Origin: Geosiphon pyriformis uo1
Taxonomy: Eukaryota; Fungi; Glomeromycota
Reading direction: 5' to 3'
Assembly (NCBI GenBank): GCA_016748015.1
Contig: JAAOMT010000607.1
Span: 744,001-808,000, forward strand
DNA: 64,000 nt
Shown: positions 27,147 through 63,905 of the stretch, one piece after another
How positions within the stretch are numbered: position 1 is the first letter of the stretch
Layout: every line of letters starts with the position of its first letter
Position numbers and translations under genes: made by a program
The notes under the pieces: generated by a model
Databases searched by the model: none
What the model was told of the DNA's origin: nothing
What the model saw: only the letters and a program-made list of their open reading frames with translations

Positions 27147-30100
27147 TATAATCTTATAAAAAACCAGTATTAACAGCAGTTATCCAAAAGTGGCAGAATC
27201 AGAAATAATAAAAACAAATCATTTAGAATTTGTCAAATCCTTATTTCAGCAGTACCAGCCAACAATTGGGCTTAACCAACAATTATTATCCAGTAAAATC
27301 AGTTTTCAACTTTTACATCAACAAAAGAATCACAGATTTTTTAAAAAGACCAGTTGATATTAAATTAGCAAGAGAAAATTTCTATACAAAATTAATTTAA
27401 CATACCAGTTTACCACAAAATCACAGTTTTGCACCAATCATCAGAGAAATCAATCAAAAATTGAAAGATATACTCAACAACAATTCTCCATTACTTATGC
27501 AAATAAGAGTAAAGGAAAATTACAAACACCAGCAGCAACCCCAAAAGAAATACAATTACCAATGTGGAAGAAACAAAGAATTAAATCTCCACTATATCTA
27601 TTATATTATCACATATCCAGAAATATCATTAATATTACATTAGCAGATGCATCCATATTGAATGCAACATCAATATTTAGATAATTTCTATTTCAAAGTA
27701 AACAAAAAAAAGCAGAATTATTAGGAACATATGGTGATTATTTTGAAAAATTTAAATCATGATTACCAATACCATCTGGATTTCAATTATCACTGCTTCA
27801 ACCAGATTTCAGGACTGTAAGTCTCTGGGAAATAACAGAATCAAAAGAAAAAAAAAATAACAATTAAGAATTCTATTACCATAACCTAATAGTAGAAAAC
27901 CCAGAAGTTAAAACTCCAAAGATTCAAACTCAGAAAAATCAATGCCATTCAAACTCTGATTTTATTAATTAGCAAAACTTACCTTTAGTAATTGTGATCA
28001 ATCAACCACCAATTGACCTAATTGCTGAGCCAATACAGCAACAGCCACCAATACTACTTCAACAACCACCAGTACAACAGCAACAACCAATTATGCCAAT
28101 TGCATACACACCTATCACCAAGCTTGAAAAGTTCACTGGCAAAAAAGATAATATGTAAGTGTGGCTAAATAATATAGAAAAAGCCATTGCAGCCAATAGA
28201 TGAAATAATGTCAGAGCCATGCAAACCATTTCATATTTTCTCCAAGATACTATCAACTCATGGTATCAAAGCTTGATTAACAAATCCCAAGATTTTAATG
28301 CATTTAATCTTGAGTTCCTGCAATATTTTAGCAATAATAACAGCATTAACTGTTTAGCCAATATCTTTACTACTATTAAGCAAAAAAAAACTGAAGCAGT
28401 TACTACTTATTTGGGACACTTTCACAGAAATTTGTGCCAAATTTAAGCAATACAAGCTAATTATTTCACTACATCACAAATCTTGAATTAATTCATTAGA
28501 GGCCTGCACAGTAGCATTCTCTAATATGTATGCCCATTATATTTAGCAGGCCTTTAAGCTGCAGTTACTTATACCAGAGATTTTGAAACTGCAAAATTAG
28601 AAGCCAACCATATCCAAATTGTAAATCTAGTAATAAACAGATCATCTGACTTGGATTCCAAATTGAAACAATTCAGTGATTCAATTAATCAGAAATTAGA
28701 GGAATATTTATCTAACAACAATCAGTTTATTTATCAACTCCCACAACATCACGACAACTCAGAAAACTCCAGTCAGCCTTAAAATCATATGTATTCACAA
28801 TCATCAGTCAATCAACTATAACAACAGAAGACATGTATGTATTATAATTACAGTAAACAAGGTTATCTTAAAGCTAACTGCAGGGCATATTGCAATCAAC
28901 CATGATTGGAGAATCAATATTGAAACCCCAATCACTGATTTTAAACTCCAAACCACTACTTAAATTAAGATTATTATCAATCATATTACACTCAAGTAAC
29001 ACAGCAACCAATCTACCAAACCCCAATTTATCAGATTCCAGCACCAGTTATCTACCAACCACAGCCACAAGTGATATATCAACCTTAACAAATTCAAACT
29101 CTACCACAAAATCTAACCCAGATGTTACCCAGAAACCAAAGACCAAAAATTATTTAGCAAAACTAAAAATCAGCAATGATTGTTCATCAACCAATCCCCA
29201 GTTCATCTAACTATGCCTTAAGATCACATCCCAAAAATTTGGGAAATGGGTACAACCAAAATTCGAGTTCCCAAAACTATCTAAGTCTTCTGGTTACCCC
29301 AGAAAACATCTCAACCAACAACTTAGAAATCTCCCTAAAGCAAACAATTAACAACAACATACCTCCAGCCACTGTCACCAATGACAAATTATTAGCAGCT
29401 ATTTTTCCTTTCAAAATCAAAAAACCAACCAAAACTCCTCTTTTTAGTGGAACCACTCTCAATATGAAATTCATTACTGCCATATACACTGATGTCAAGA
29501 TTGATGGGCAGATCATCAAACTGATCCTAAACAGTGGTTCAGCAGACAGCATTATCACATGACAACTCATAAACCAATTAAGTTGCCAAGTTGATCGTGC
29601 TGTCAGTGCCAGAATTATTACTGCTGATGGAGCCACTAAAACTCCAATTGGCAAAATTGACAATTTTCCCATCAAAGTCAATAGTATCATTGTACTAATC
29701 AAGATTTTAGTTATGGAAGCCACCTAGTACCAAGCTTTTATTGATAATGACTAGTTGTCTAAAACCAACACAGTACTTGACTGGACTATATAAGAGCTCC
29801 AGCTCAGCCAACACAGTTATTACATACAAGTACCAGTAATCTATGGACATTTCAAGCCAATTATTACACAACCACTAATTGAATTTGAAAAAAAAAAGGG
29901 AAAACCTACTTGAAAAGCCTACCAAGTCTTGTGGGCTGATGAAAACCACAATGAATTGCTGCTCATACCTTTTTGAAACAAAGAAAAAGAAATAGAAATA
30001 GAAAATGACTTACTACAAGTGAACACTTTTACTCATACTCCATACACCACCACCACACAAGACCAGTTAAACTACTGTTGACCAAAGCTAATATGCATTA

Positions 30101-33623: not shown

Positions 33624-34457
33624 CCATTTAATATAGTCAAAATTTGCTGAAATTAATGAAAATTGGCCGAAATAATTAATAGTTTAGTGAAATAACTTGT
33701 AGTTTGCTGAAATGTATCTTTAGTTTACCAAAATTGTAACAAAAAGAAAAGTGCAAGTTCAAAAACTAGTACTACAACAAGTTGTATAAAAAAAAAGCTT
33801 CTCTCTTTAAGAAAATATATTTTTTCATAATATTTTATCATAGTATCCTACTTTAAATATCTTAAATTGAAACAAATTACCTTTTACACATCTCAAATAA
33901 AAATTAAAATATTCAAAAACCAAATCTTTGAATTATTATACTTGAAATTTCCTTAACACAACTAACATTTTGAAATTGATTAGCTACCAATTTCAGTAAT
34001 CTGTTAATAACTTCAGACCTAGATAAAAAATGTTTCTCTTGACAAAATTCTATTTCTTTTACATTTTTTTTATTTTTATTTTTATTTTCTTATTATAATC
34101 ATTAAGGTAGCCTACAGATGAGATTCTTGTAGAAGAGTTGACTTTGACAGCAAAATAACTACACATTTTTAGTGAGCTTTCAGATGAGCAATTCCTGGGA
34201 AAAAGTTGATGTTTACTACAATATAATTACACAAAGTAACTGATATAAAATTGGCCATTCTATTTATAAGCCCAGCAGTTCAAATTATAAGAGATAATTT
34301 GAAAATAAATTCAGTTACTGAAGGTCCAACTACTTCCTGAGAATATGAATTCACAGCAAATTAACATTAACAACATTCAAGAAAAGAGACCAAAAATTTC
34401 TGGTAATATTTGGTGTTCTTCCATAGAAATAACACAGCAATAACAACTTCAAAGTGG

Positions 34458-35436
34458 TGTTACCAGACGAAATTAGAAATATTATTTAGCATAAAATTAT
34501 TTTTATAATTCCTATCATTAATTAGCATATATTATCATTTTAAATTATCACTTATTACATTAGCAAAATATCCGAAATTATCATTTAATTAATAACCCAA
34601 TTTGTACATAACACAAATGTACCCTAATTGCAATAATCAATTATGCAATACCCCAAAATATATAACATTCAAAAGTTCACCAAAATTTGTAGAAATTCAC
34701 CAAAATAATTGATAGTTCACCGAAATATCTAATAGTTTGCAGAAATAACTTGTAGTTCACCGAAATGTATCTTTAGTTTAGCAAAATTGTAGAAAAGAGC
34801 AAAGTTCAAGTTCATGGAATAGTGTTACAACAAGTTGTATAAAAAAAAAGCTTTTCTCTTCGAGAAAATATATCTTATTTTAGATTTATCACTTAGAACC
34901 ATTCCTATACACACAAAAAGAAATAAATATTAAATAATTTAAAAAACCAAATTCTTTAATTATTGCACTTGGAAAATCCCCAAAACTCAACTAACATTTT
35001 GAAATTGATTAACTACCAATTTCAGTAAACTGTTAGTGATTCCAGACCTGAATAGAAAATGTTCTCTTGATAAAAACCTATTTCTTTTACATTTCTTTCA
35101 TTTTTATTTTTTTTTTCTTATTACAATTATTAAGGTAGCTTACAGACGAGATTCCTGTAAAAGAGTTGACTTTCACAGCAAAGTAACTACACATTTTTAG
35201 TAAGCTTCCAGATGAGTAATTCCTAGGAAAGAGTTGACATTTACTACAACGTAACTACACAAGTAACTGGCATAGAATTGGCCATTCCACTTATAAGCCC
35301 AGCAGTTCAAATTATAGGAGATAATTTGAAGATAAAATTCAGTTATCGGAGGTTTAAACACTTTTTATAGTCGTGAATTAACAGCATTACAACAAACATA
35401 CAAGAGCTAAGAAGAGACCAAAAATCTCTAGTAACA
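34458..35436 (+). mobile_element. Solo LTR, D-related subfamily, inserted just downstream of element D PBS
   Basis: TGTTACCAG...GTAACA termini, TSD GTGG/GTAG. The empty site aaagtggcaacc is seen at 58506. Confidence 0.9.
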
Positions 35437-38400
35437 GTAGTGACTATACCAGACACAACAACTCTAGAGTATTATCAGTCAATTTACACTTACTGCAAAC
35501 AAAGATTCAACATCCCAGACAGAATTAAAGTTGTCAAAAAATCAGTATACCAATACATTAAAAACTGCATCAACAATTATTTTTTTGGAAACTACAACAT
35601 TTCAGAAGTTAGAAACAATCTTTACAATAATTTATTGCACTATTCACAACTGAAAACTGAAGACCTTAACAGTGAAACACTTGCCATCTACTTCCAAGAA
35701 CTTAATTTTAGCATTATTCAGTATTGTAAAAAAAAATATTCAGTACAGTCTAAATACTCTATTAACTTTGAATTAGAGACAGAAACAAGCAACAAAGGCA
35801 AACAAAAAATGAAACAATACTCAAAAACCACTCCAAACACTCCAATACTACCAAAGACAATTGCCAAACACTTGCAAACACCTAAACAAGGAACCAGTAT
35901 TAAATTACCACTTTCTATTACACTATTTCCAATTTTATTTGCTCGACCACAAACACCAAATTTACTACTTACCTATTTCTCCAAACCAGAAAATTTTCAG
36001 TTATCTAAAAATCCTATTCAACAGCAGGAACCAATATCAACCAGCACCAATATTATTAATTACTTACAAGAAAATAAAAATAATTATTTAGAGAACTTAG
36101 AAAATAAAAAACTGAATCAAAACAAAAAAAACCTACAAAGAACAAAAAAAAAATGGCAACTGCTTATATTACAAAAATCCCAGAATTTACTGGTAAAGAT
36201 AATGATACTAGTCCTCAAAAATGGCTTAACAAAGTTCAAAAAGCAGGAGATACAAATGGTTGGAATGCAGCAAAAATGCTCAAAGCAATTCTATACTTTC
36301 TCTAAGGAATTGTAGGAGAATAGTTAAAAAACTTAGAAGAATCATTTGAAAACTGGCAAGCATTCAAAAATGCTTTCTTATAACAATTTACCAACAACAA
36401 CACCTTTATCACTCTTCACAATTGCTTTCACAATATCAAACAAGAAACCTTTAAAACTGTTATAACTTATCTTGGAAGATTTAACAAACTTCTTTAACAA
36501 ATTTGACAATTAGAAACCAATGAATATTATTCCAATGTCCAGATTTTGGATCAGTTTATAGCAGGGTTAAAAAACAAGTTAATCAAGAAAGTTTACTCAC
36601 ATGTTCCAGAAAACTTAGCAACAGCCATTAGACATGCAAAGAAATATAAAATGGCAATAGAAAAAGCAAACCACACCAAACTTGTAAATTTTGCTATTGG
36701 AAAAACCAGCTTAGCAGCTGAAGAGAAAATTGACCAACTTACAAAAAAAGTTGAAAACTATTTTACCAACCAACAATAATAGCAACAACCACAAAGATAT
36801 TAGCCACCACAGTAATAAAACCAAAACAACTACTTATTACCAACAAACAGCCAAAACCAAAGTTGTTATTATTGTGAGATTCCAAGACATTGGAAACAAG
36901 ATTGCAGAAAGCTACAAAGAGACCAACAAAACAGGAGTAATTAACATTACCCTTCAACACAGCAATTTCATTATCAGCCTCTACCACCAGCCTATTATTC
37001 CTTAAAACCACAACAGCAAACCAATTACTATTAACTTGCTCCATAGTAACAATATTAACAATCTCTACCAACTCAACAGTATTAACAACCACCTACACAA
37101 CAATATCAAATACCAGCCCAAAAATTGGTTTAACATAACCAATTCACACCACAAAATTAATTTCAGAATAATAACAACAGAATCAATTCAAACAACCAAT
37201 TGGTTCTCCAAAATTATGGTTAGCAAAAACCCAATTACTACTATATTCAATCCAGTTATCTCACAATGCCTGAAAAATCGAATTTTTAACAAACTGTACT
37301 TTTTGAAAGTAAAGTTGCAGTACCAAAATCAAACCCTTCTAACAATACTATTTTACCAGCTTAAATTGCTCAAAATGCCAACTTCTCAAATATATTTCCA
37401 TTTAAATTTGAAGCCAATAAATCACCATTCTTGCTTAGCAATGCAGCAGTCAATGAACAAAAAGCAATCACTGCTATATATATTAAAGCTAAGGTAGAAA
37501 AAAAACAAATCCACTTAATTCTAGACAGTGGATCTGTTGGAAGCATTATTACTTACCAACTGATACAACAGCTTGGAAAAAATGTTGACAGATTAGTCCA
37601 AACTGTTATTTTTATAGCAAATGGGATAAAAAAGACATTAGTAGGAGAAATTGACAATTTTTTATTCACCATTGATGGAATCATCATTCCAGTTAAAGTT
37701 TTAGTCATGGATGTACCACAATACCAAGCTCTTGTCAGAAATAATTAGCTTCTCAAGGCCAATGCAAATTTAGATTGAAAAACCCAAGAATTGAAGATTT
37801 CATACCAAGAACAATACACCAAAGTACCTGTCATCTATAATACTTTTAATAAGAAATTTGAAAAAGCTCTAGTATTCGAATTTGAAAAGAAAAAAGAATT
37901 ACCAATTATTGAAACCTTTATGGCTTTTGAATCACCATTCAATTGGGCTGAAGAAACAGAACAAAAAATCTTTGAAGAGACCAGAAGATGGAATGTAGTT
38001 AGATATTCCATACCAGAACCACAAAAACAACTACCTTATATTCCACTTAAATACAAAGATTGTAAAAAAAAACTTTCATTAATGAGAGCATATATTTTTC
38101 CAAAAGAGGAATATGAAACTCCTACCTGTTATTTTTGCAAAGCATACTATAGAGAACGATTTAGATATTTCAAAAGAAGTGAAAAATAAGACAACACTCT
38201 TTGTCTTACATGTGAAGATATGCTATTAGAAGAATACAACTGGATTAATGTTGCAATGAAAGGAGGAGTATGTAATCAAACCTGCCAATATGCCTTATCA
38301 ATTTCGGAAAAAGTCAGAAGAAGAATACTTTTTGATGCAGCATACAACAGTGCTTTTAACAAACTCTACTACTACTCTTATGATGCTGAAATAATCTTTG

Positions 38401-39611: not shown

Positions 39612-42600
39612 TGTTACAGATAATTATTTGGAGTTTCAAATCAAATAACAAATCCATAACTTGGTGCTCAATTGATAAGGTGGTTGGTAATACCTGAAGG
39701 TGTTGTTTTATCTGAAGGTTTTATTATAGAGTTCTTTGTATAATGGACAGAAATTCAATAGTTGTCTTTCCAGTCACCTCCTAGAATTGCAATTCTGTCG
39801 AATTTTTTTCTCAGTGTGGTGGCCAGTAATCTTGGCAGAGATGCCCTTCTGGTAAGCTATTCTTAAATTTTCAATTCTTATATCTTTTTTTTGGGGTTTT
39901 TTATCAAGTTATCCATGACATTAATAACTCAGTGCTTAATCTTCAAGTAATTAGTAAAACAAAGAAATAATAAAAAATAAAAAAAATAAGCCAAGACAAT
40001 AAATATTAGTATTCCATCAATAGCTGTGATCAAGAACTATTGTTCTAGTGTGATTAAGTATCAATTACTATCAACATAAAGTGTTGATAGTAGAGAGTAG
40101 AATTAAGATAGAGAATAATTATTTATTGATATTTGTGAATTGGAAGGTCACTTAAATGAAATATAAACTGAGAAGTCTCTAACTAAAAGATTCTGTTTTG
40201 TAATTTTAAATAATTATGATTTGCAAGTCTAATTGATTCTATGAGTCTAATTGATTTCACGAATCAATTAACTCTGAGTTCCATTGATTAATTTTCTAAC
40301 TTCTGATACTACTGCTATATATATGTATTTGAGATTCCTCAATTCCTCAATTTTTTATGTCAGAAATCCTAGAATTCCTAGAATTCTGCAATTCCTTTGA
40401 GAGGAATCCTGGAATTTTGGAATCCTGTGATTTCTCTTATGAGAATTCTGCAATTCCTGGAATTCTGGATTCCATATTTATTATGTCTACCTATAATTGG
40501 CTAATTTATATGCTAATATACTTCTTATATTTTATAAGTAATATTATTCTCTCCTTTAATATTGAGCTCTTGTGAAATCTTCTAAATTTTTCTTTGTATC
40601 AATTTTGTTGCTGTAATTTCTATTGCTATTTTTTTTTTTTTTTTTTTTTAAATCTAATTTTTATACGTAACTAGGATTTTTAATTATAATGGTCTGTTCA
40701 GAATATCTAAGTTCAAATCTTGTATTTGTATTATGTGCATGTTCAGACATAATGTTCTTATTATTATCACTGAATTGAGTTAATTCCTGCTCTATTATAA
40801 GATCTAGAAGTATGATATATTGTTTAATGTTTAAAGCAGAGTTTGAATTTGTTGTTGACAGAGTTTAAATCATCATTGTCATTAGCAAAGTTTGAATTGT
40901 TATTGTCATTAGTGGAGTTTGAATTGGAATTAAGTTCCAATTTTGATTTCCATTTGTTCTTGCTAATTGGCTCTTCTTTAAATATATAATACATGAGAGT
41001 AGATTGTAATTCAGGGCTGTCAAAAGAGTTTTAATGATTTGTTAATTGATTTTTGTACTGCTGATTCTCAAATTCCTTTTTCTTTTCTAAGTTTTTTTCA
41101 TATTGACACTTTCCCAATGCTGACTTTTGGCACAGAAGAAGGCAGTTTTCATATAAGTAAGTATGAATCTGAGTAGTTTTTTCTGGAATTCTTCCAATGA
41201 ATCTTTAAATAATCGGAGTTTTGAATTTTTAGAGATTTGACAGGTTTTATCTAAGGTAAGTTTTCTTGTCTAATAGCAGGGTTAGACTTATTGGGTTTCT
41301 AATGTTTGGGTTTTAAATGATCAAGTTGAAGTTTTAACTTTTAACAAGTTTTACTAAAGGTAAGTTTTTTTCTATACTAGTGGGGTTAAAATTTATTGGG
41401 TTTCAAATGTTCAGGTTTTAAACTATCAGGTCTTGAAGAATCGGAGTTTTAACAAGTTCTATCAAAAGTAAGTTTCTTTATATAATAGTGGGGTTGGAAT
41501 TATTAAGTTTCAAATAATTTTCAGAGTTTTTAATTTAATAAGTTTATCAAAGGTAAGTTCTTTATATGATAACAGGGTTGAGATTATTGGGTTTTGAATA
41601 AACAAAGTTTTAATTTAACGAGTTTTTTTTTTAATGAGTTTATCAATGGTAATTTTCGAATGTTCAGAGTTTTAATAATCAGGTTTTGAATGATCGGAGT
41701 TTCAATTTAATGAGTTTTTTAAAGATAATAGTAAAAATAAGGATTTTGCAAATTCTAAGTGATTTTCTCTTGTTTTCTTTTGGTCTGCCATTTTTCTGCA
41801 TGGTTGTTGCTCATTATTATCACTGAATTAAGTTAATTTCTGCTCTATTATAAGATCTAAAAGCATGATATATTGTTTGGTGTTTGAAGTGGAGTTTGAA
41901 TTTATTGTTGATGGAGTTTAAATTGTTATTGTTATTAGCAAAGTTTGAATCATTGTCATTATCAGTAGAGTTTAAATTGGGATTAAGTTCCAATTCCGAT
42001 TTCTATTTGTTCTTGCTGATTGGCTCTTCTTTGAATATATGATACATGGGAATGAATTGTGACTTAAGGCCATTAGGTAAGTTTTGATGATTTGTTGATC
42101 GATTTTGGTACTACTGATTCTTAAATTTCTTTTTTTTCTCAAAGTCTTTTTCATATTGACACTTTCTCAATGCTGACTTTTGGCACAGAAAAAGGCAGTC
42201 TTTGCACAAGTAAGTATGAATCTGAGTAGTTTTTTCTGGAATTCTTCCAATGAGTCTTTAAATAATTGGAGTTTTGAATTTCTAAAGATTTGATGGGTTT
42301 TATCTGAGGTAAGTTTCCTTGTCCAATAGCAAGATTAGACTTATTGGGTTTTTAATGTTCAAGTTTTAAATGATCGAGTTGGAGTTTTAACTTTTAATAA
42401 GTTTTACCAAAGGTAAGTTTCTTTTTATACTAGCAGAGTTGGAATTTATCAAGTTTTAAATATTCGGGTTTTGAACTATCGGGTCTTGAAGAATTGGAGT
42501 TTTAACAAGTTTTATCAAAAATAAGTTTCTTTATACAATAGCAGAGTTAGAATTATCAGGTTTTAAATAATTTTTGGAGTTTTTAATTTAACAAGTTTAT

Positions 42601-43856
42601 TGAAGGTAAGTTTTTTATACAATAGCAGAGTTGAGATTATTGGGTTTCGAATAAACGGAGTTTTAATCTAATAAGTTTTTTTTTAACAAGTTTATCAACA
42701 GTAATTTTCAAATGTTCGGGGTTTTAATGATTGGGTTTTAAATGATCAAAGATTCAATTTAACAAGTTTTTTAAAGGTAATGGTAAAAATAAGGATTTCA
42801 CGAATCTTAAGTGATTTTCTCTTGTTTTCTCTTGGTCTGCCACTTTCCTGTATGGTTGTTGCTGGTGCTAGTTTTCTGTTGGATTATACTTCACAGGGAG
42901 CATCAAATGTTACAGATGATTATTTGGGGTCTCAAATCAAATAACAAACTCATAACTTGGTGCTTAATTGATAGGGTGGTTAGTAATATCTGAAGATATT
43001 GTTTTATCTGAAGATTTTGTTATGAAGTCCTTTGTATAATAGACAGAGATTCAATGGTTGTCTTTTCAGTCACCTTCTGGAATTGCAATTCCATTAAATT
43101 TTTTTCTCAGCATAATGACTGGTAATCTTGGCAGAAATGCCCTTTTGGTAAGCTATTCTTAAATTCTCAATTCCTATACCCTTCCTTTGGGGTCTTTTAC
43201 CAGGCTATTTATGACTTCAATAACTCAGTGCTTAATCTTCAAGTAATTAGTAAAACAAAGAAATAATAGAAAATAACAGAAAATAAAAGAGATAAGTCAA
43301 GGCAATAAATATTAGTATCTTATCAATAGCCATGATCAAGAGCTATTGTTCTAGTGTGATTAAGTATTAATTACTATCAACATAAAGTGTTAATAGTAGA
43401 GAGTGGAATTAAGATAGAGAATAATTATTTATTAATATTTGTGGATTGGAAGGTTGTTTAGATGAAATCTAAACTGGGAAGTTTCTAACTAAAGAATTCT
43501 ATTTTGTAATTTTAATAATTATAATTTGCAAGTCTAATTAATTCTATGAGTCTAATTGACTCTGCAAATCAATTGACTCTAAGTTCTATTGACTAATTTT
43601 CTAACTTCTGATACTACTGCTATATATACATATTTAAGATTTCTCAATTCCTCAATTCTTTATGTTAGGAATCCTGGAATTCCTGGAATTCTGTAATTCT
43701 TTTAAGAGGAATCCTGGAATTCTGGAAATCCTGTGATTCCTCTTATGAGAATTCTGCAATTCCTCTGAGAGGAATTCTGGAATTCCACATTTACTACATC
43801 TACCTATGATTAGCTAATTTATATGCTAATATACTTCTTATATTTTATGAGTAACA
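39612..43856 (-). mobile_element. Non-autonomous LTR element (family C LTRs 43856-42908 and 40543-39612, about 2.4 kb internal region)
   Basis: Two homologous LTRs, PBS tttgatgctccctgtgaag after the 5' LTR, PPT aaaggagagaataa before the 3' LTR, TSD CTAC/CCAC (empty site ctaccacttgttgg at 63004). The internal region lacks RT and IN and is a tandem duplication of about 1.05 kb. Confidence 0.9.
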
Positions 43857-43989
43857 CCACCTGTTGGAAGAAAAACTTTCTTGAATTAATATAAGTCTCT
43901 TAGAACCTTAACAACAAAAACAATTGAAACAGCTAATAGCTGAATTTGCAAATATATTTGCAAAAGACAACAATAATCTTGGAAAAACT

Positions 43990-55522: not shown

Positions 55523-57448
55523 TGTTACCCGAGTAGAAAAACTGATCCAAAGTTATGAAGAAATGTGACCAAAACGTGACATAACACAGAATAATGTGCA
55601 ATAACGTTGGATAATGCATTATAACATAGGATAATATATTATAATGTAAGATAACACAGAATAGCATGCAATAACATAAGATAATGTGTTATAATGCAGG
55701 ATAATACAGAATAACATGTAATAATGTCAGATAACGTATTATAACATAGAATAACTAGCAATAATGTAGAAAAACAAAGTAATAACAGAAACAACAAAGC
55801 AATAGCTAGCGATAGCAAGACAATTGAAAGCAATCCTGTAAAACCAAAAGAATATATAAAAGCAAGTAGTTGTAGAAGTGAGAAAAGACAGACAGATAGA
55901 TACGAACCTCTAGACCAGAATTAAAATATCCATACCCCTTTATCCTTTATTATCTTCCCTATTTTATCTCCTGAAATAAACCAATTATTAAAGAAATCAG
56001 AATAATGAATTTATGTTCTCAAACTTTGTGGAATTTACATGAATTAACCCTTGTCTCATACCTCCATTTTAGAACAGATGCTCTTAGCATAACCACCTCA
56101 AACTTATTAATGATTTGGACCAATTGCTCTTGATCACAACGATTGACGATACTAATTTATTTTTTTCTCTCTTTTCTTTTTTTTTCTTTTTTTTTTTCTT
56201 TTTTTTTCTGTTTTATTTTTGTGGAGCAGCAACATAGTAAAATCAACTGTCTGGGAATAGACTTTGTAATAGCCTGGTAAAAGAGGGAAGCTCCCTCTAA
56301 GTTTTTGGATATTAACATTATCTTGTTAGCTTACCAGAAGGGTGAAAAGACAATGCCAGACCCTAATGACTGCACTCATTAGCTTGAAAAAGAAAGCTCA
56401 CATTTATAAAAAACGTTGCAATTGATGAAAGACAAATTCTGTGCCTTATAACTAAAAAACTCAATAGATAAAATTCACATCCAGGAATAGTCCTTCAGAG
56501 ACTGATAATCAAGACTAAGCCAACAGAATTACGTAAAAGATGCATCATTAATAATTGAGAGCACCAAATGTTATCATTTTCCATACCCACCAAGTTTACC
56601 CATAACATTTGATGCTCTCTGTGAGGTTATAAATCCACAGAGACAGAGCATCCCCAAAAATACATAAAAGTGGTGACTATTGGAACAATAGGAAAGAACC
56701 ATTCCTCGTACGGAAAAGCACTATTTCAATACTTTCGAAAAGACCTAGGAATACCAGCAGAAACTGCTTACACAGAAAGTGATTTTTGTAACTATATCAA
56801 TGCAAAAATTGACTGCTTGTTAGGCTGTGCAACTGATACAGGAAAACTTGGAAAACAAATTCATCAAAGCTTACTAGGGTACTCAACAGCCACGATTACC
56901 TGAGCAATTGCTGAAACTCTGCGCATAATTGATACAAACATTAAATATTACATGGCACAACAATTCTCTCAAGTACAACAACCAATGGAATCCGATCCTA
57001 AGGAATACGAAAACAAATCCAACAACTCCGTAACTGTTCAAGCCAAGTCTACAGTCAACAAAAAACCAAGGGTCCTCTCCCCAACAACTCTATCATATCA
57101 TCAGACACTCCAAAGTAGAATTGTATTCAACCCACCCCTAGAAATCCAGTCAGAAACACCACAAACTCCTGGAAATCCACACCCTTGGAATCAACACAGT
57201 TGGACCAAATCACTAGGAGAATATGGATCACTTTTTGGAAATCTTACCCCAGCAGCCAGTCAAACAGAAGGAAACCTGTCAACTTGGGAACAGCCACCAA
57301 TGCAAAACTTAGCAGAATCAGCATCTCCTCTGATGAAAGAAACAGCTATCTTACAACCTATTGGTTCAAGTAACAAAGGAAAGCAACCAGCATTAGCATC
57401 TGGAGAACACTCAAATATGCAGACACCAATCTCTTTAAACATAACCAG
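55523..57448 (+). mobile_element. Ty3/Gypsy family B: 5' LTR (55523-56607), PBS (56608-56626) and gag N-terminal region, interrupted by a family D copy
   Basis: TGTTACCC...CATAACA, then tttgatgctctctgtgagg, then a GTG-led gag extension homologous to those of families A and D. Confidence 0.85.
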
Positions 57449-60012
57449 TGTTACCAGTAGAATTTTAGCTATTAATTAGCATAAAATTACCCTTATAATT
57501 TCTATAATTCATTAGTATATTAATATCATTTCAAATTATTATTTATTATTTAATCAATTATCACATATCACAATTCAATTAAAATAATCTAATTAGTATA
57601 ACAGAAAGTAAGATGATCAAATTACACAATACCCTGAACTTTGTAACATTCAAAAATTCGCCGAAATTTACAGAAATTCGCCGAAATTTATAAGAAATTC
57701 GCCAAAATTTACAGAAATTCACCAAAATTATGAATAGTTCACCCAAATTAATCAATAGTTTAGCAAAATAACTTGTAGTTCATCAAAATGTATCTTTAGT
57801 TTGCCGGAATTTGGGCAAAGAGAAAAAAGTGCAAGTTCATAAACTAGTACTACAACAAGTTGTATAAAAAAAGAGCTTTTCTCTTCTGAAAAATGTATCT
57901 TACTTTAGATTTATCACTTAGAACCATTTCTACACACACAAAAAGAAATAAAAATCAAATAATTCGAAAAAACCAATTTCTTTAATTATTACACTTGGAA
58001 AATCCCCAAAACCCAACTAACGTTTTGAAATTGATTAGCTACCAATTTCAGTAAACTGTTAGTGACTCCAGGCCTGGATAGAAAACGTTTTTCTTGACAA
58101 AAATTCTATTTCTTTTACATTTCTTTTATTTTCTTTTATTTTTTTTACTATAATCACTAAGGTAACCTACAGACAAGATTCCTGTAGAAGAGTTGACTTT
58201 TACAGCAAAGTAACTACACATTTTTAGTGAGCTTCCAGACAAGCAATTCCTGGAAAAGAGTTGACGTTTACTACAATGTAACTACATAAAGTAACTGACA
58301 AGGAATTGGCTATTCCACTTATAAGCCCAGCAGTTCAAATTATAGGAGATAATTTGAAGATAAATTCAGTTATTGGAGATTCAACTACTCTCTGAAAACG
58401 AGAATTCACAGCAAATCAACATTACCAACATTTAAGAAAAGAGACCAAAAATCTCTGGTAACATTTGGTGCTCTCCTACAGAAATAACACAGCAACAACA
58501 AATTCAAAGTGGCAACCACACCAGACACAGCAACTCTAGAGTATTACCAGTCAATTTACACACACTGCAAACAAAGATTCAACATTCTAGACGGAATTGA
58601 AATTGTAAAGAAATCAGTATACCAATACATTGAAAACTGCATCAACAATTAGCTTTTTGGAAACTACAACATTTTAGAAGTTAGAAGCAACCTCTACAAT
58701 AATCTAGTGCATTATTCACATTTGGGAACAGAAGACCTGAACAGTGAAACACTTGCTACCTACTTCCAAGAACTTAATTTTAATATTATTAAGTATTGTG
58801 AAGAAAAATACCCAGTACAGTCTAAATACTCTTTTGACTTTGAATCAGAGACAGAAACAAGCAATAAAGGCAAACAAAGATTGAAGCAATACTTAAGAAC
58901 CACTCCAAACACTCCAACACTACAAAAAACAACTGCCAAACACTTGCAAACACCTGAACAAGGAACCAGTATCAAATTACTACTTTCTATTACACCATTT
59001 CCAATTTCACTTGTTCAATCACAAACACCAAGTTTACCACTTAGTCGTTTCTCCAGACCAGAAGATTTTCAGTCACCTAGAAATCCTACTCAATAGCAGG
59101 AACCAATATCAACAAGTGCCAATATCATTGATTACTTACAGGAAAACGAAAGTAATCACTCAGAAAGCTTGGAAAGTAAGGAAACTGAATCAGAACCAGA
59201 AAAAATTCCAGAAAACGAAGAAGAAATGACAACTGCTTACATTGCAAAAATCCCAGAATTTACTGGTGAAGACAATGATACCAGTCCCCAAGAATGGCTT
59301 GACAAAGTTCAAAAAGCAGGAGATACAAATGGTTGGATTGCAGCAAGAATGCTTAAAGCAATTCCCTACTTTCTCCAAGGAACAGCAGGAGAATGGTTTG
59401 AAAATTTAGAAGAACCATTTGAAAGCTGGCAAACATTCAAAGATGCTTTCCTACAACAATTCACCAACAACAATACCTCTATCACTCTCAGAAACCGCTT
59501 TCGCAATATCAAACAAGAAACATCTGAATCTGTTATAACCTATCTTAGAAGATTTAACAAACTTTTCAGACAAATCCGACAATTGGAAACCAATGACTAC
59601 TATTCTAATGCTCAAATTCTGGATCAGTTTATAGCAGAGTTAAAAGACAAACTGATTAAGAAAGTCTGTCCACATGCTCCAGCAGACTTAGCAACTGCTA
59701 TTAGATAGGCAAAGAGCTATGAAATGGCAATGGAAGAAGCAAATCACACCAAGCTTGTAAATCTTGCAATTGGAGAAACCAGCTTAGCAGCTGAAAAGAA
59801 GATAGACCAACTCACAAAAAAAGTTGAAAGCTACTTCACAAACCAACAACAACAGCCACAACAACCACAAAGATATCAACCCCCACAACAACACAACCAA
59901 AACAATTTTGGATTATCATCCAACAACCAATCTCAAAATTGTCATTATTGTGGAATTCCAGGACACTAGAAACGAGATTGTAGAAAATTACAAAGAGACC
60001 AACAAAACAGGA

Positions 60013-60032
60013 NNNNNNNNNNNNNNNNNNNN
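60013..60032. other. Assembly gap (20 N) with a 296-nt exact duplication on either side
   Basis: 59717-60012 is identical to 60033-60328. Confidence 0.9.
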
Positions 60033-62200
60033 CTATGAAATGGCAATGGAAGAAGCAAATCACACCAAGCTTGTAAATCTTGCAATTGGAGAAACCAGCT
60101 TAGCAGCTGAAAAGAAGATAGACCAACTCACAAAAAAAGTTGAAAGCTACTTCACAAACCAACAACAACAGCCACAACAACCACAAAGATATCAACCCCC
60201 ACAACAACACAACCAAAACAATTTTGGATTATCATCCAACAACCAATCTCAAAATTGTCATTATTGTGGAATTCCAGGACACTAGAAACGAGATTGTAGA
60301 AAATTACAAAGAGACCAACAAAACAGGAGTAATCAACATTACTCTTCACCACAACAATCTTATTACCAATCTCCACCACCAACTTATTATTCACCAAGGC
60401 CACAAAATCAAACAGTTACTATCCACCAGCTCCACAATTAATGCAGCAACAATATCAGCAACCTTTACCAATTCAGCCATATCAGACACTACCCACTCAA
60501 CAATATCAAGTACCAGCAAGAAGATTGGTTCAATATAACCAATTCACACCCCAAAATCAATTGCAGAATAACCACAACAGAATCAATTCAAATAACCAGT
60601 TGGTTCCCCGAAATTCGGGCCAGCAAAGACCCAATCACTATTACACTCAACCCAGTTATCTTACAATACCAGAAGAATCGGATTTTCAACAAACTACACT
60701 TTCTGAAGGTAAAATTGCAGCACTAAGATCAAACTCTTCCAACCACACCATTCCCCCAGCTCAAATTGCCCAAAATGCTAATCTGTCAAATATATTTCTA
60801 TTTGAATTTGAGGCAAATGAATCACCATTTCTGCTTAGTAATGCAGCAGTCAATGAACAGAAAGCAATTACTGCCATGTACACAGAAGCTACAGTGGAAA
60901 AAAAACCCATTTGCTTAATCTTAAATAGTGGATCAGCTAGAAGTATCATCACTTACCAGCTAATACAACAACTCAAATGAAATGTAAACAGACCAGCTCA
61001 AACAGTTATTGTTACAGCTGATGGTATGAAGAAGACTTCAGTAGAAGAAATTGATGATTTCCCTTTTTCAATTGATGGAATCACCATTCCAGTTAAAGTT
61101 CTTGTTATGGATGCACTCCAATACCAAGCTCTAGTCGGAATAATTGGCTTCTCAAGACCAATGCAAATCTGAACTAGGAAACTCAAGAACTTAAAATCTC
61201 ATACCAAGGACAATATACCATAGTATCTGCAATCTGTGGTACCTTTAACAAATGATCAGAAAAAGCTCCAGTATTTGAATTTGAAAAGGAGAAAGAAATG
61301 CCACTTACTAAAACCTACATGGCTCTTGGATCAACATCCAATTGGGCTGAAGAAACCGAACAAGAGATTTTCGAAAAATCAAGGGGATGAAAGAAAGTTA
61401 GATATTCTACACCAGAACCACAGAAACAACCACTCTATATTCCACTCAAATGCAAAGATTACAACAAAAAACTTTCATCAATGGGAGCATGTATTTCTCC
61501 AGAAGAGGAATATGAAACTTGTACCTGTTACTTTTGCAAAGCATGCCATAGAAAATGATTTGGATCTCCAAAAAGAAGTGGAAAATGGGACAACACACCT
61601 TGTCTTACATGTGGAGAAATACTACCAGAAAAATGCAATTGGATTGGTGTAGCAATGAGAGGAGGAGTATGTGATCAAACCTGTTAATATGCTCTATCAA
61701 TTTCGAAAAAAGTCAGAAGAGGGACACCATTTGATACAGCATACAACAGTGCTCTCAATAAACTTTACCACTACTCTCATGATGCTGAAATGATTTTTGA
61801 CCTAGCAATAGCATTAATCAATGGAGCCACTCAAGAAGATGTCCGCCAAATGAAAGAAGCTGAATATATTGAGTACACCATGGAATTAGCTGGATTTGAT
61901 TATGAAGATGAAGTAAAAACCTACCACCAAATTGCAAGCCACACATATCCGACCAAAGAAGCTCAAATTCAACAATTAGAGCAAATGAATATTCAATTGT
62001 GTGAAAAATGTGTTATGCCTTGTGATGACCAATGGTGTTTAGAATGTTATGCTTTTAGCATTCCTCTGCCAGATGAGAATAATGAAAATGAAATCGAATT
62101 TGGAGTATCTGAACAAGTAGAAGAACTACCAACCACTCCCATCTATCTTTTTGAAAAGCAACCACCTCTACAACTTAAATATTTTGACAACCATGGCCAA

Positions 62201-62599
62201 GGAATCAAACCAGAAAAAGCACACGAAATTGATACTGGATATGATCTAAGATACCCAGAAAAAGATACTTTGATTCTCCAACCAAAGTCTTTGACAAAAA
62301 TCAATCTAAAAATTGCTCTTGAAATTCCACCAGGAGCAATAGTTCAAATTGCCTCCAGATCATCATTGGCAAGCAAAAAAATCAATATTAGAGGAAGAGT
62401 TATAGATGCAGAATACACTGAAGACATTACCATCATATTACAGAATGAGACAGACAAACCATTCAAAATTGAACATGCTGAAAAAATTGCTCAAGCAATT
62501 TACTTACCCTTAATCAACATTTCGGGTTTACAATCAGTAAACAACAGAGAACAATTGGGAAAAAGTGAAAGAGGAACTCAAAGTTTCGATTCAACTGGA
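62201..62599 (+). pseudogene. dUTPase domain (trimeric type) of the family D copy
   Basis: KAHEIDTGYDLRYP (motif 1), QIASRSSLA (2), RVIDAEYTEDI (3), EKIAQAI (4), ERGTQSFDSTG (5), all within ORF 61790-62830. Confidence 0.92.
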
Positions 62600-63149: not shown

Positions 63150-63905
63150 AACATCAAATCCATACAGGAGATGCTCTACCAAAACGTCAACAAGCTTATC
63201 GAGTGCCATCTGCCAGCCACCAATTGATCAGAGAAGAGATCCAATAAATGCTCAATAACGGATTGATTCAACCATTAAGAAGCCCTTGGGCCTTACCAGT
63301 AGTTTTGGTTAAAAAGAAAAACGGAAAAATTAGATTCTGTGTTGATTATAGACAACTGAATAGTGTTACAATTGGAGATGCCTACCCTCTTCCAAGAATT
63401 GATGACATGTTAGATGCTCTGAGAAAAGCCAAGTTCTTTTCAACTTTAGACCTGGAAAGTGGATACTGGCAAGTCGAAATGGACCCAAAAGATAGACCCA
63501 AAACAGCATTCACCACTCAAGAAGAAAATTATGAGTTTTAATGTTATGCCTTTTGGACTCTGCAATACACCAGCAACATTTCAGCGGCTTATAGATGTTG
63601 TCTATGAAGAGCTCTTGTGGCAATCAGTAGTTGTTTATCTTGATGATACTGATGTATACTCACCAAGCTTTGAAGTCCATCTCATTCACCTGCGAGAAGT
63701 TTTTCAACGATTACGAAAAGCAGGATTAAAGTTAAATATTGAGAAATGTCACTTTGGAAAAACAAGTTTGATCTTTCTTGGACACATAGTTAGTAAAGAT
63801 GGAATCAAACCAAATCCAGGAACAATCAATGCTGTCAAAAACTTTCAAACCCCCAGAAATACTACAGAACTAAGAGGATTTGTGGAATTAGCCTCTTACT
63901 ATTGA
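63150..63905 (+). pseudogene. Reverse transcriptase of the family D copy (one frameshift near 63538)
   Basis: DAYPLPRIDDML, FSTLDLESGYWQV, KTAFTT, MPFGLCNTPATFQR, VYLDDT, KCHFG...FLGH. Confidence 0.92.

Follow-up and report, generated by a model that had tools for sequence, protein, structure and literature searches.

In MLV, glyco-Gag (gPr80gag) is described as starting at an in-frame CUG upstream of the Gag AUG on unspliced RNA, which gives a long and a short Gag; the 88 extra residues carry a signal peptide, and the product is a type II membrane protein (PMC3042739). In PEG10, a domesticated mammalian gene, an in-frame CUG upstream of the AUG adds 34 residues, and both starts are reported to be used on the evidence of mutagenesis (PMC2800197). 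Among fungal genes, Neurospora cpc-1 is described with a long, conserved, AUG-less extension read in frame from near-cognate codons (PMC5487733). GUG is ranked second after CUG among such codons, and in yeast the initiation context is reported to matter chiefly for non-AUG starts (PMC5666671). Among the titles and abstract openings retrieved from the open-access literature, none concerned a mobile LTR retrotransposon whose Gag starts at a codon other than AUG.

Here we describe LTR elements in a window of 64,000 nucleotides of the Geosiphon pyriformis uo1 genome (contig JAAOMT010000607.1, positions 744,001 to 808,000), whose Gag appears to begin at a GUG. Like glyco-Gag, they have an in-frame near-cognate start ahead of the Gag AUG and would make a long and a short Gag, but the codon is GUG, the extension has 239 residues with a soluble-looking four-helix domain, and the elements are fungal Ty3/gypsy. 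They are not glyco-Gag proper: six extension proteins show no signal or hydrophobic anchor (the highest 19-residue hydropathy is 1.1), the linker has no transmembrane stretch, and neither a CUG start nor a gammaretrovirus is involved. With PEG10 they share a retrotransposon-type Gag and an in-frame non-AUG start upstream of an AUG; they differ in being multicopy mobile families, in using GUG, and in adding a whole domain. Neurospora cpc-1 resembles them as a fungal gene with a long conserved AUG-less in-frame extension, but it encodes a host transcription factor and has several near-cognate codons and regulatory uORFs, whereas the window elements have one fixed codon. Judged from sequence, the GUG start is likely real and would be a variant of the glyco-Gag/PEG10 kind.

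The elements of the window

The window is AT-rich fungal DNA with a few host genes within 1-12 kb (RGS domain, ubiquitin hydrolase), LINE-like pieces, and a nest of LTR elements from 26 kb onward. The elements studied here are decayed Ty3/gypsy LTR retrotransposons, Gag-PR-dUTPase-RT, and every copy in the window is broken, whatever its family. The class to which they belong is reported to make up 41% of the G. pyriformis genome (PMC11952901), and dUTPase-bearing fungal gypsy elements have been reported (PMC2864245). Copy-level statistics were drawn from gene-model proteins and from the contigs of DNA run X1; runs X2 and X3 contributed almost nothing.

The features of element D and of the other copies are collected in Table 1. 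An LTR with TG...CA ends is followed by a primer binding site (PBS), a Ty3-type capsid (PF19259, E 5e-10; PF03732, E 1e-15) that is weakly like Arc, and a CCHC zinc knuckle. With the protease, RT, RNase H and integrase pieces, these are parts of a Ty3/gypsy (Metaviridae-type) element, to which the window elements, unlike the known ones, add an uncharacterised AUG-less N-terminal domain. The order in element D is PR, dUTPase, RT, and the element continues past the window end; other, nested copies have RNase H (44755) and integrase (50139) following their RT pieces. As the 3' LTR falls outside the window, this copy, called the youngest in the initial annotation, is not datable. Its transcription probably starts near 57900, which would give a 5' leader of about 600 nt.

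Gag and pol of element D look like one frame, since the shift of frame near 60413 is due to a one-base difference that the second D copy does not share, and since intact relatives have single long ORFs. Two in-frame stops, at 58650 in the domain and 59094 in the linker, are private to the copy, another letter making up more than 98% of contig depth. Two further stretches deserve mention: a 296-nt exact duplication flanking an N run (59717-60328) is an assembly-gap artefact within gag, and a Cys-rich stretch between protease and dUTPase (61400-62100) has no Pfam match.

Table 1. Positions of features in the window
Feature	Position	Strand	Details
Family A	27187..28101	+	GTG 27190; extension frameshifted; core Gag start region near 28093-28101
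Second family-D copy	34451..36155	+	GTG 34454; extension 35437-36152, one ATG
Internal duplicate within element C	41735..41794	-	ATG 41791 replaces GTG
Element C, non-autonomous	42787..42846	-	GTG 42843; 19 codons resembling family A
Family B	56667..57448	+	GTG 56670; D LTR truncates extension at 57449
LTR uORF ATG sites, A/C/E/F-type	26664, 30759, 52814	+	
LTR uORF ATG sites, A/C/E/F-type	43383, 40077, 33151	-	
Element D, 5' LTR	57449..58463	+	TGTTAC...GTAACA; sits within extension of family-B element
Element D, TATA-like box	57863..57868	+	AATAAA at 57947
Element D, A-rich, T-poor leader	58464..58508	+	in-frame TAA 58485 in both window D copies
Element D, PBS	58466..58483	+	TGGTGCTC...
Element D, AAA-GTG-G, candidate GUG start	58506..58512	+	GTG = 58509-58511; A at -3, G at +4
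Element D, N-terminal domain, ~104 aa	58509..58820	+	four predicted helices: 7-24, 31-50, 55-69, 79-100
Element D, polar linker	58821..59225	+	basic KGK patch, S/T-P motifs, acidic end
Element D, core Gag, Ty3_capsid / Retrotrans_gag	59226..59705	+	starts ATG 59226 (GAA-ATG)
Element D, CCHC zinc knuckle	59940..59981	+	interrupted by stop
Element D, dUTPase domain, in pol	62210..62599	+	
Element D, reverse transcriptase, partial	63516..63791	+	

The initial annotation counted four independent LTR families. We find three deep protein lineages in the window (A, B and D), the fourth (G) being present only in the database, because element C is a non-autonomous relative of A. More precisely, A and C show four synonymous differences within 19 codons, and beyond these roughly 19 common codons element C decays into repeats. 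It spans 39612-43859 on the minus strand, where two LTRs flank a duplicated internal block of ~1.05 kb that combines the first Gag codons with degenerate repeats of ~100 nt. The second D copy is split directly behind its GTGG by a family-D solo LTR (34458-35436) and resumes at 35437; this insertion has a 4-bp target duplication with one mismatch (34454-34457 / 35437-35440).

The LTRs themselves carry upstream ATGs. In 6/6 A/C/E/F-type LTRs there is a 7-codon uORF (MLIV.T-stop type) with a conserved, weak-context ATG that overlaps a GTAA.T donor-like motif, after which come a branch-like motif (TACTAA) and a pyrimidine tract; this region is possibly an intron or a regulatory uORF in U5. The family-B LTR has several ATGs, among them one (56352-56666) that several gene models use and that was not seen in the other families. 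The frame of this ATG closes at a TAA just ahead of the GTG context in the window copy, and it is a possible uORF.

Homologues of the extension were found in the host's own annotation. For family D there are 274, and the 120 among the matches listed are all G. pyriformis gene models, 75-85% identical to the window's D copy, the two D copies in the window being 78% identical to each other. The 36/36 homologues of the B extension and the 14/14 of the A extension are also Geosiphon pyriformis gene models. A search of representatives with a profile that took in core Gag (518 positions) gave 972 matches, of which the best 150 are close relatives, and the ten that were looked up are all from G. pyriformis. 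No relative of the extension appeared in the viral or metagenome contigs searched.

A GTG at the edge of coding conservation

The AAAGTGG motif shortly after the LTR, on which the initial annotation was built, is present in every element, and its reported spacing and the upstream closure of the frame in A and B were found as described. The GTG lies 45 nt from the LTR end in both D copies, 63 nt in A, 59 nt in B, and 64 nt in C; the chance of the motif in one 70-nt leader is ~0.003. In families A and B alike, the frame is closed by a stop at -48, within the PBS. In the two window D copies the stop is at -24, while the majority state of the family is open there and closed at -108. Between this upstream stop and the GTG there is no in-frame ATG in A, B, or D.

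We also agree that GTG is the family state. The single ATG version in the window is in the internal duplicate of element C, GTG is the majority in D contigs, and the direction of decay is G>A, not A>G, contig decay being dominated by C>T and G>A. In the X1 contigs, position 58509 shows no variant, an ATG included, at the 1% threshold, and G>A reaches 3% at 58511; depth at this site is a sum over contigs and not a copy count.

The corresponding residue was surveyed in 314 fetched proteins of families D, A, B, and G, anchored with HMMs. Among the 163 anchored proteins it is Val in 148, Met in 11, and Ile or Leu in 4. By family, the counts are Val 100, Met 6, Ile 2 in D (n=108), Val 29, Met 5 in A (n=34), Val 18, Leu 1, Ile 1 in B (n=20), and Val in the only G protein; a first D set had given Val 106, Met 7, other 3 (n=116), with 4 more proteins that begin one codon later. 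The Met share is probably inflated, since gene models require ATG. The residue before the site is Lys or Thr, which places A at -3, in 29/29 A, 19/20 B, and 95/105 D proteins, and the residue after it is Ala, Val, or Thr in all anchored proteins.

Similarity between lineages begins at this Val, and upstream of it only the Lys/Thr aligns. The D leader looks non-coding, since one-base indels (2.4% of depth) and shifted leader frames fit this: 1-nt and 3-nt indel variants occur among genomic copies, and the frame varies among copies and is shifted in several proteins. GTG accounts for 10 of the 117 Val codons in window elements (8.5%), and it is the codon at the site in the three deep families and in C. 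The chance of this in all three families is ~6e-4, and it stays below 0.02 even if decay lowered GTG from 25%. A conserved near-cognate codon with a favourable context thus marks the 5' limit of the conserved coding sequence. The 80 nt after the GTG form no strong hairpin (-5 to -10 kcal/mol).

The same motif can be read as a 3' splice site, AAAG / TGG, at which an exon ending in A would be joined to TGG to create an AUG, the unspliced RNA being scanned to the capsid AUG. Split starts built by splicing occur in the env of insect gypsy. This reading draws on the AG that precedes TGG at all five DNA sites, on a Thr-Val variant that could read CAG / TG, on a motif resembling a donor (GATA / GTAATT) that A and C have ~520 nt upstream, and on a host intron, read by hand in the ubiquitin hydrolase gene, that seems to end in AAG. 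However, T makes up 7-22% and A 44-59% of the 27 nt ahead of the AG, whereas three host acceptors read by hand have 33-52% T; one of the five sites has a branch-like motif, and each site has 2-4 competing AGs within 31 nt upstream. No donor is common to all families: the A / GT donor is absent in B, D has only GTAACT, and the donor of A and C is closely followed by a branch-like motif and a pyrimidine tract of its own. A splice-made A / UG start is unlikely on this composition and motif content.

Downstream of the GTG, the extension stays in frame with core Gag for 717 nt, or 239 codons, from 58509 to 59226. The region that had been aligned across families corresponds to a domain of about 100 aa that is homologous in four lineages, with similarity from the GTG codon on: D, several subfamilies of A (49-79% identical), B, and G (one protein). 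Identity between lineages is 18-30%, and two-family profiles score the left-out families at a median of 33-59 bits, compared with a shuffle maximum of 13. AlphaFold2 predicts four helices with a pLDDT of 81 overall and about 90 over residues 11-100. These comparisons support a genuine coding role for the extension, kept over the long term by constraint on the protein.

The suggestion of a matrix-like helical domain stood in part, as the helices are predicted but come without a fold match. Pfam has no family for the domain, Foldseek gives no match at E 0.001, VIA-align has its best Z (6.7) with unrelated helical proteins, and the listed fold matches include no matrix protein. 'Matrix-like' thus describes position only, and the absent match shows neither novelty nor difference from matrix. 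Retroviral matrix (MA) is a small N-terminal helical domain, followed by a disordered linker and the capsid. The window domain is like it in being small, predicted to be helical, and placed ahead of linker and capsid; it is unlike it in the second residue, which is Ala, Val, or Thr and not the myristoylation Gly.

The breakage of all window copies might also suggest that the extension is a relic or a non-coding leader, with a GTG that is a decayed ATG or due to chance. The codon differences between the two window D copies, 26 of 84 synonymous against 35% expected, are near neutral in this pair of broken copies; such near neutrality is expected of copies that died after insertion, and dN/dS between window copies is therefore uninformative. 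A decayed ATG runs against the G>A direction and the GTG majority, and a relic runs against a domain that is predicted to fold and is conserved between lineages. This possibility is largely refuted, and we consider it highly improbable.

Loss of ATG between the two starts

The absence of ATG in all frames ahead of core Gag, reported for element D in the initial annotation, is borne out by the counts. The 947 nt from 58279 to 59225 form the longest ATG-free run on either window strand, where base composition predicts 12.6 ATGs (P 3e-6) and dinucleotides 9.8 (P 6e-5). In the D extension, 0 ATG are found over all frames against 7-9 expected, and shuffling codon order gives P 0.004 for zero out-of-frame ATG; downstream of the run, the element has 15-21 ATG per kb. 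The 716-nt extension of the second D copy contains a single ATG, and none of 120 proteins has Met in that column. In 114 D proteins, Met makes up 8 of 21,463 extension residues, 6 of them at the start site, versus 317 of 16,010 in the core. Between TATA and PBS, the ATGs of D differ among four LTR copies, with ACG/ATG/ACA/ATA-type patterns that fit CpG decay.

An ATG-free leader had been proposed across families, and this is shown in D only. In each of the window extensions of A and B, 7 ATGs are found where 10-12 would be expected (P about 0.1-0.2), and their LTRs have ATGs as well. Met is found at 15 of 4,381 extension residues in A, versus 34 of 2,501 in the core; in B it is not depleted in raw counts (25/3,826 in the extension vs 8/2,360; 40/4,807 vs 34/3,836 in a second count). 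All 7 ATGs of the window B extension are at columns that vary as under CpG decay or have minority Met; no B extension column has a Met majority, and those with Met vary Thr/Met/Ile or Val/Met. The ATGs of the window A extension with usable counts are at columns of the same two kinds, and a majority of Met is seen in one A extension column (6 rows). The protein columns suggest that the ATGs in both extensions were derived by decay. An in-frame fusion without a conserved AUG between the starts is therefore found in D, and in A and B by column variation only.

Downstream of the extension, Met is found at the capsid start in 22/22 B and 27/28 A proteins and is also conserved in D, where a purine stands at -3 of the core ATG; in the single G protein the residue is Ile. 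In the scanning model, avoiding out-of-frame ATGs matters only if ribosomes must scan through. Here their loss would serve no purpose unless ribosomes that leak past the first codon had to get to the capsid Met.

We consider it probable that the GUG is a part-time start, and that one RNA gives both a long Gag(-Pol) and a short form. Some ribosomes would initiate at the GUG with Met-tRNAi, and others would leak past it and scan on to the capsid AUG, with the short form as the main capsid. For the two Gag-Pol isoforms proposed initially, one longer by ~239 aa, the 239-codon frame is established and leaky scanning is the best reading of the sequence, while initiation itself stays at the level of inference.

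Three other readings bear on the same data. ATG depletion is also predicted by the splice-made start discussed above. Alternatively, the GUG could be the sole start and keep Gag-Pol low, the capsid Met serving structure or cleavage and proteolysis giving the short form. Relatives whose first AUG is strong nevertheless retain the capsid-start Met, the corresponding residue is Ile in G, and eIF4G2 is reported to start solely from GUG (PMC5666671). Such a start leaves the missing out-of-frame ATGs between the two codons unexplained; against it also stands the purine at -3 of the core ATG in D, and we judge it very unlikely. In a further reading, translation of the extension would come from an AUG in the LTR, through splicing to another leader acceptor, a frameshift, or reinitiation downstream of a uORF, and the Val would be an ordinary residue. 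Gene models do splice into the leader, an acceptor-like motif (CTCTCCTACAG) is found at the PBS end in D, and there are uORFs in the A/C/E/F and B LTRs. Yet the models enter via many acceptors and frames, as ab initio prediction would, in-frame stops occur at -24, -27, -33, and -48, and nothing in this reading accounts for a rare Val codon that is constant across lineages amid a variable N-terminus and has a Kozak-like context. Its probability is accordingly very low. Both the sole GUG and the upstream AUG explain less of the data than a leaky GUG.

Related elements with a weak first AUG

A metagenome scan with the RT kept 80 of 394 matches; 27 ORFs matched the capsid profile and 20 of the 27 were compared. 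Of these, L027, L029, L037, and L070 were set aside with a cut 5' end (L029 is ATG-free over 349 nt), and L055 and L066 with no extension defined. The RT query gave one weak locus in viral contigs.

Seven of the 20 ORFs, in four lineages by the RT tree, show the pattern expected of a leaky AUG (L008, L044, L056, L060, L063, L069, L072). Their first AUG is preceded at -3 by a pyrimidine and followed by 405-1443 nt with 0 ATG (1 in L056), where 5-18 are expected; a second Met then comes shortly ahead of the capsid, and in six of the seven the base at its -3 is a purine. L008 belongs to the sister clade of the window RTs (95/88, 121 columns). Six other ORFs have A at -3 of the first AUG and no ATG depletion (L003, L038, L039, L040, L074, and L054, of which L039 and L040 are identical and L054 is short). 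L045 is an exception, with G at -3, no ATG in 660 nt, and no second Met. L038 and L039 have Met at the capsid start despite the lack of ATG depletion, so this Met alone is no proof of a start. The pattern in the seven relatives is what a leaky first start predicts, and the window GUG would stand where they have a weak AUG. This plain weak AUG at the corresponding place is a further argument against a start made by splicing.

The N-terminal domains of these relatives do not match that of the window (best 11.6 bits; hhalign probability 0.2), and a likeness to the L044 group seen by eye was rejected. In four of them the long Gag ORF begins with TGA-ATG-A, a stop abutting the weak AUG (L044:1318-1324, L056:937-943, L072:272-278, L069:179-185). 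These four start ~50-60 nt past the PBS and have a conserved N-terminal region of ~270 aa without a Pfam family, with 0-1 ATG before the second Met. A CxxCxP motif near the Gag N-terminus, absent from the window domain, is found in L008, L060, L063, L003, L038, L039, and L045.

The helical domain and linker would occupy the place of matrix and p12 in retroviral Gag. The long form may be a minor, cytosolic Gag that co-assembles with the short one, its domain and linker targeting or regulating the particle; we hold the chances of this role, which rests on weaker grounds than the start itself, to be about even. With equal reserve, we propose that a broad Ty3/gypsy group makes two Gag(-Pol) proteins from one RNA by a leaky first start. 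In some lineages this would be an AUG in poor context, which the window lineage would have exchanged for a GUG in ideal context; the long form would carry a swappable N-terminal domain, in the window a four-helix domain of no known family, that all AUG-based annotation misses or mis-splices. The relatives offer a natural comparison between a weak AUG and a strong GUG. If this explanation is true, a Gag isoform with a new domain has stayed hidden in these elements, the start is wrong in hundreds of gene models, and in this fungal lineage GUG initiation is strong enough for selection to hold it.
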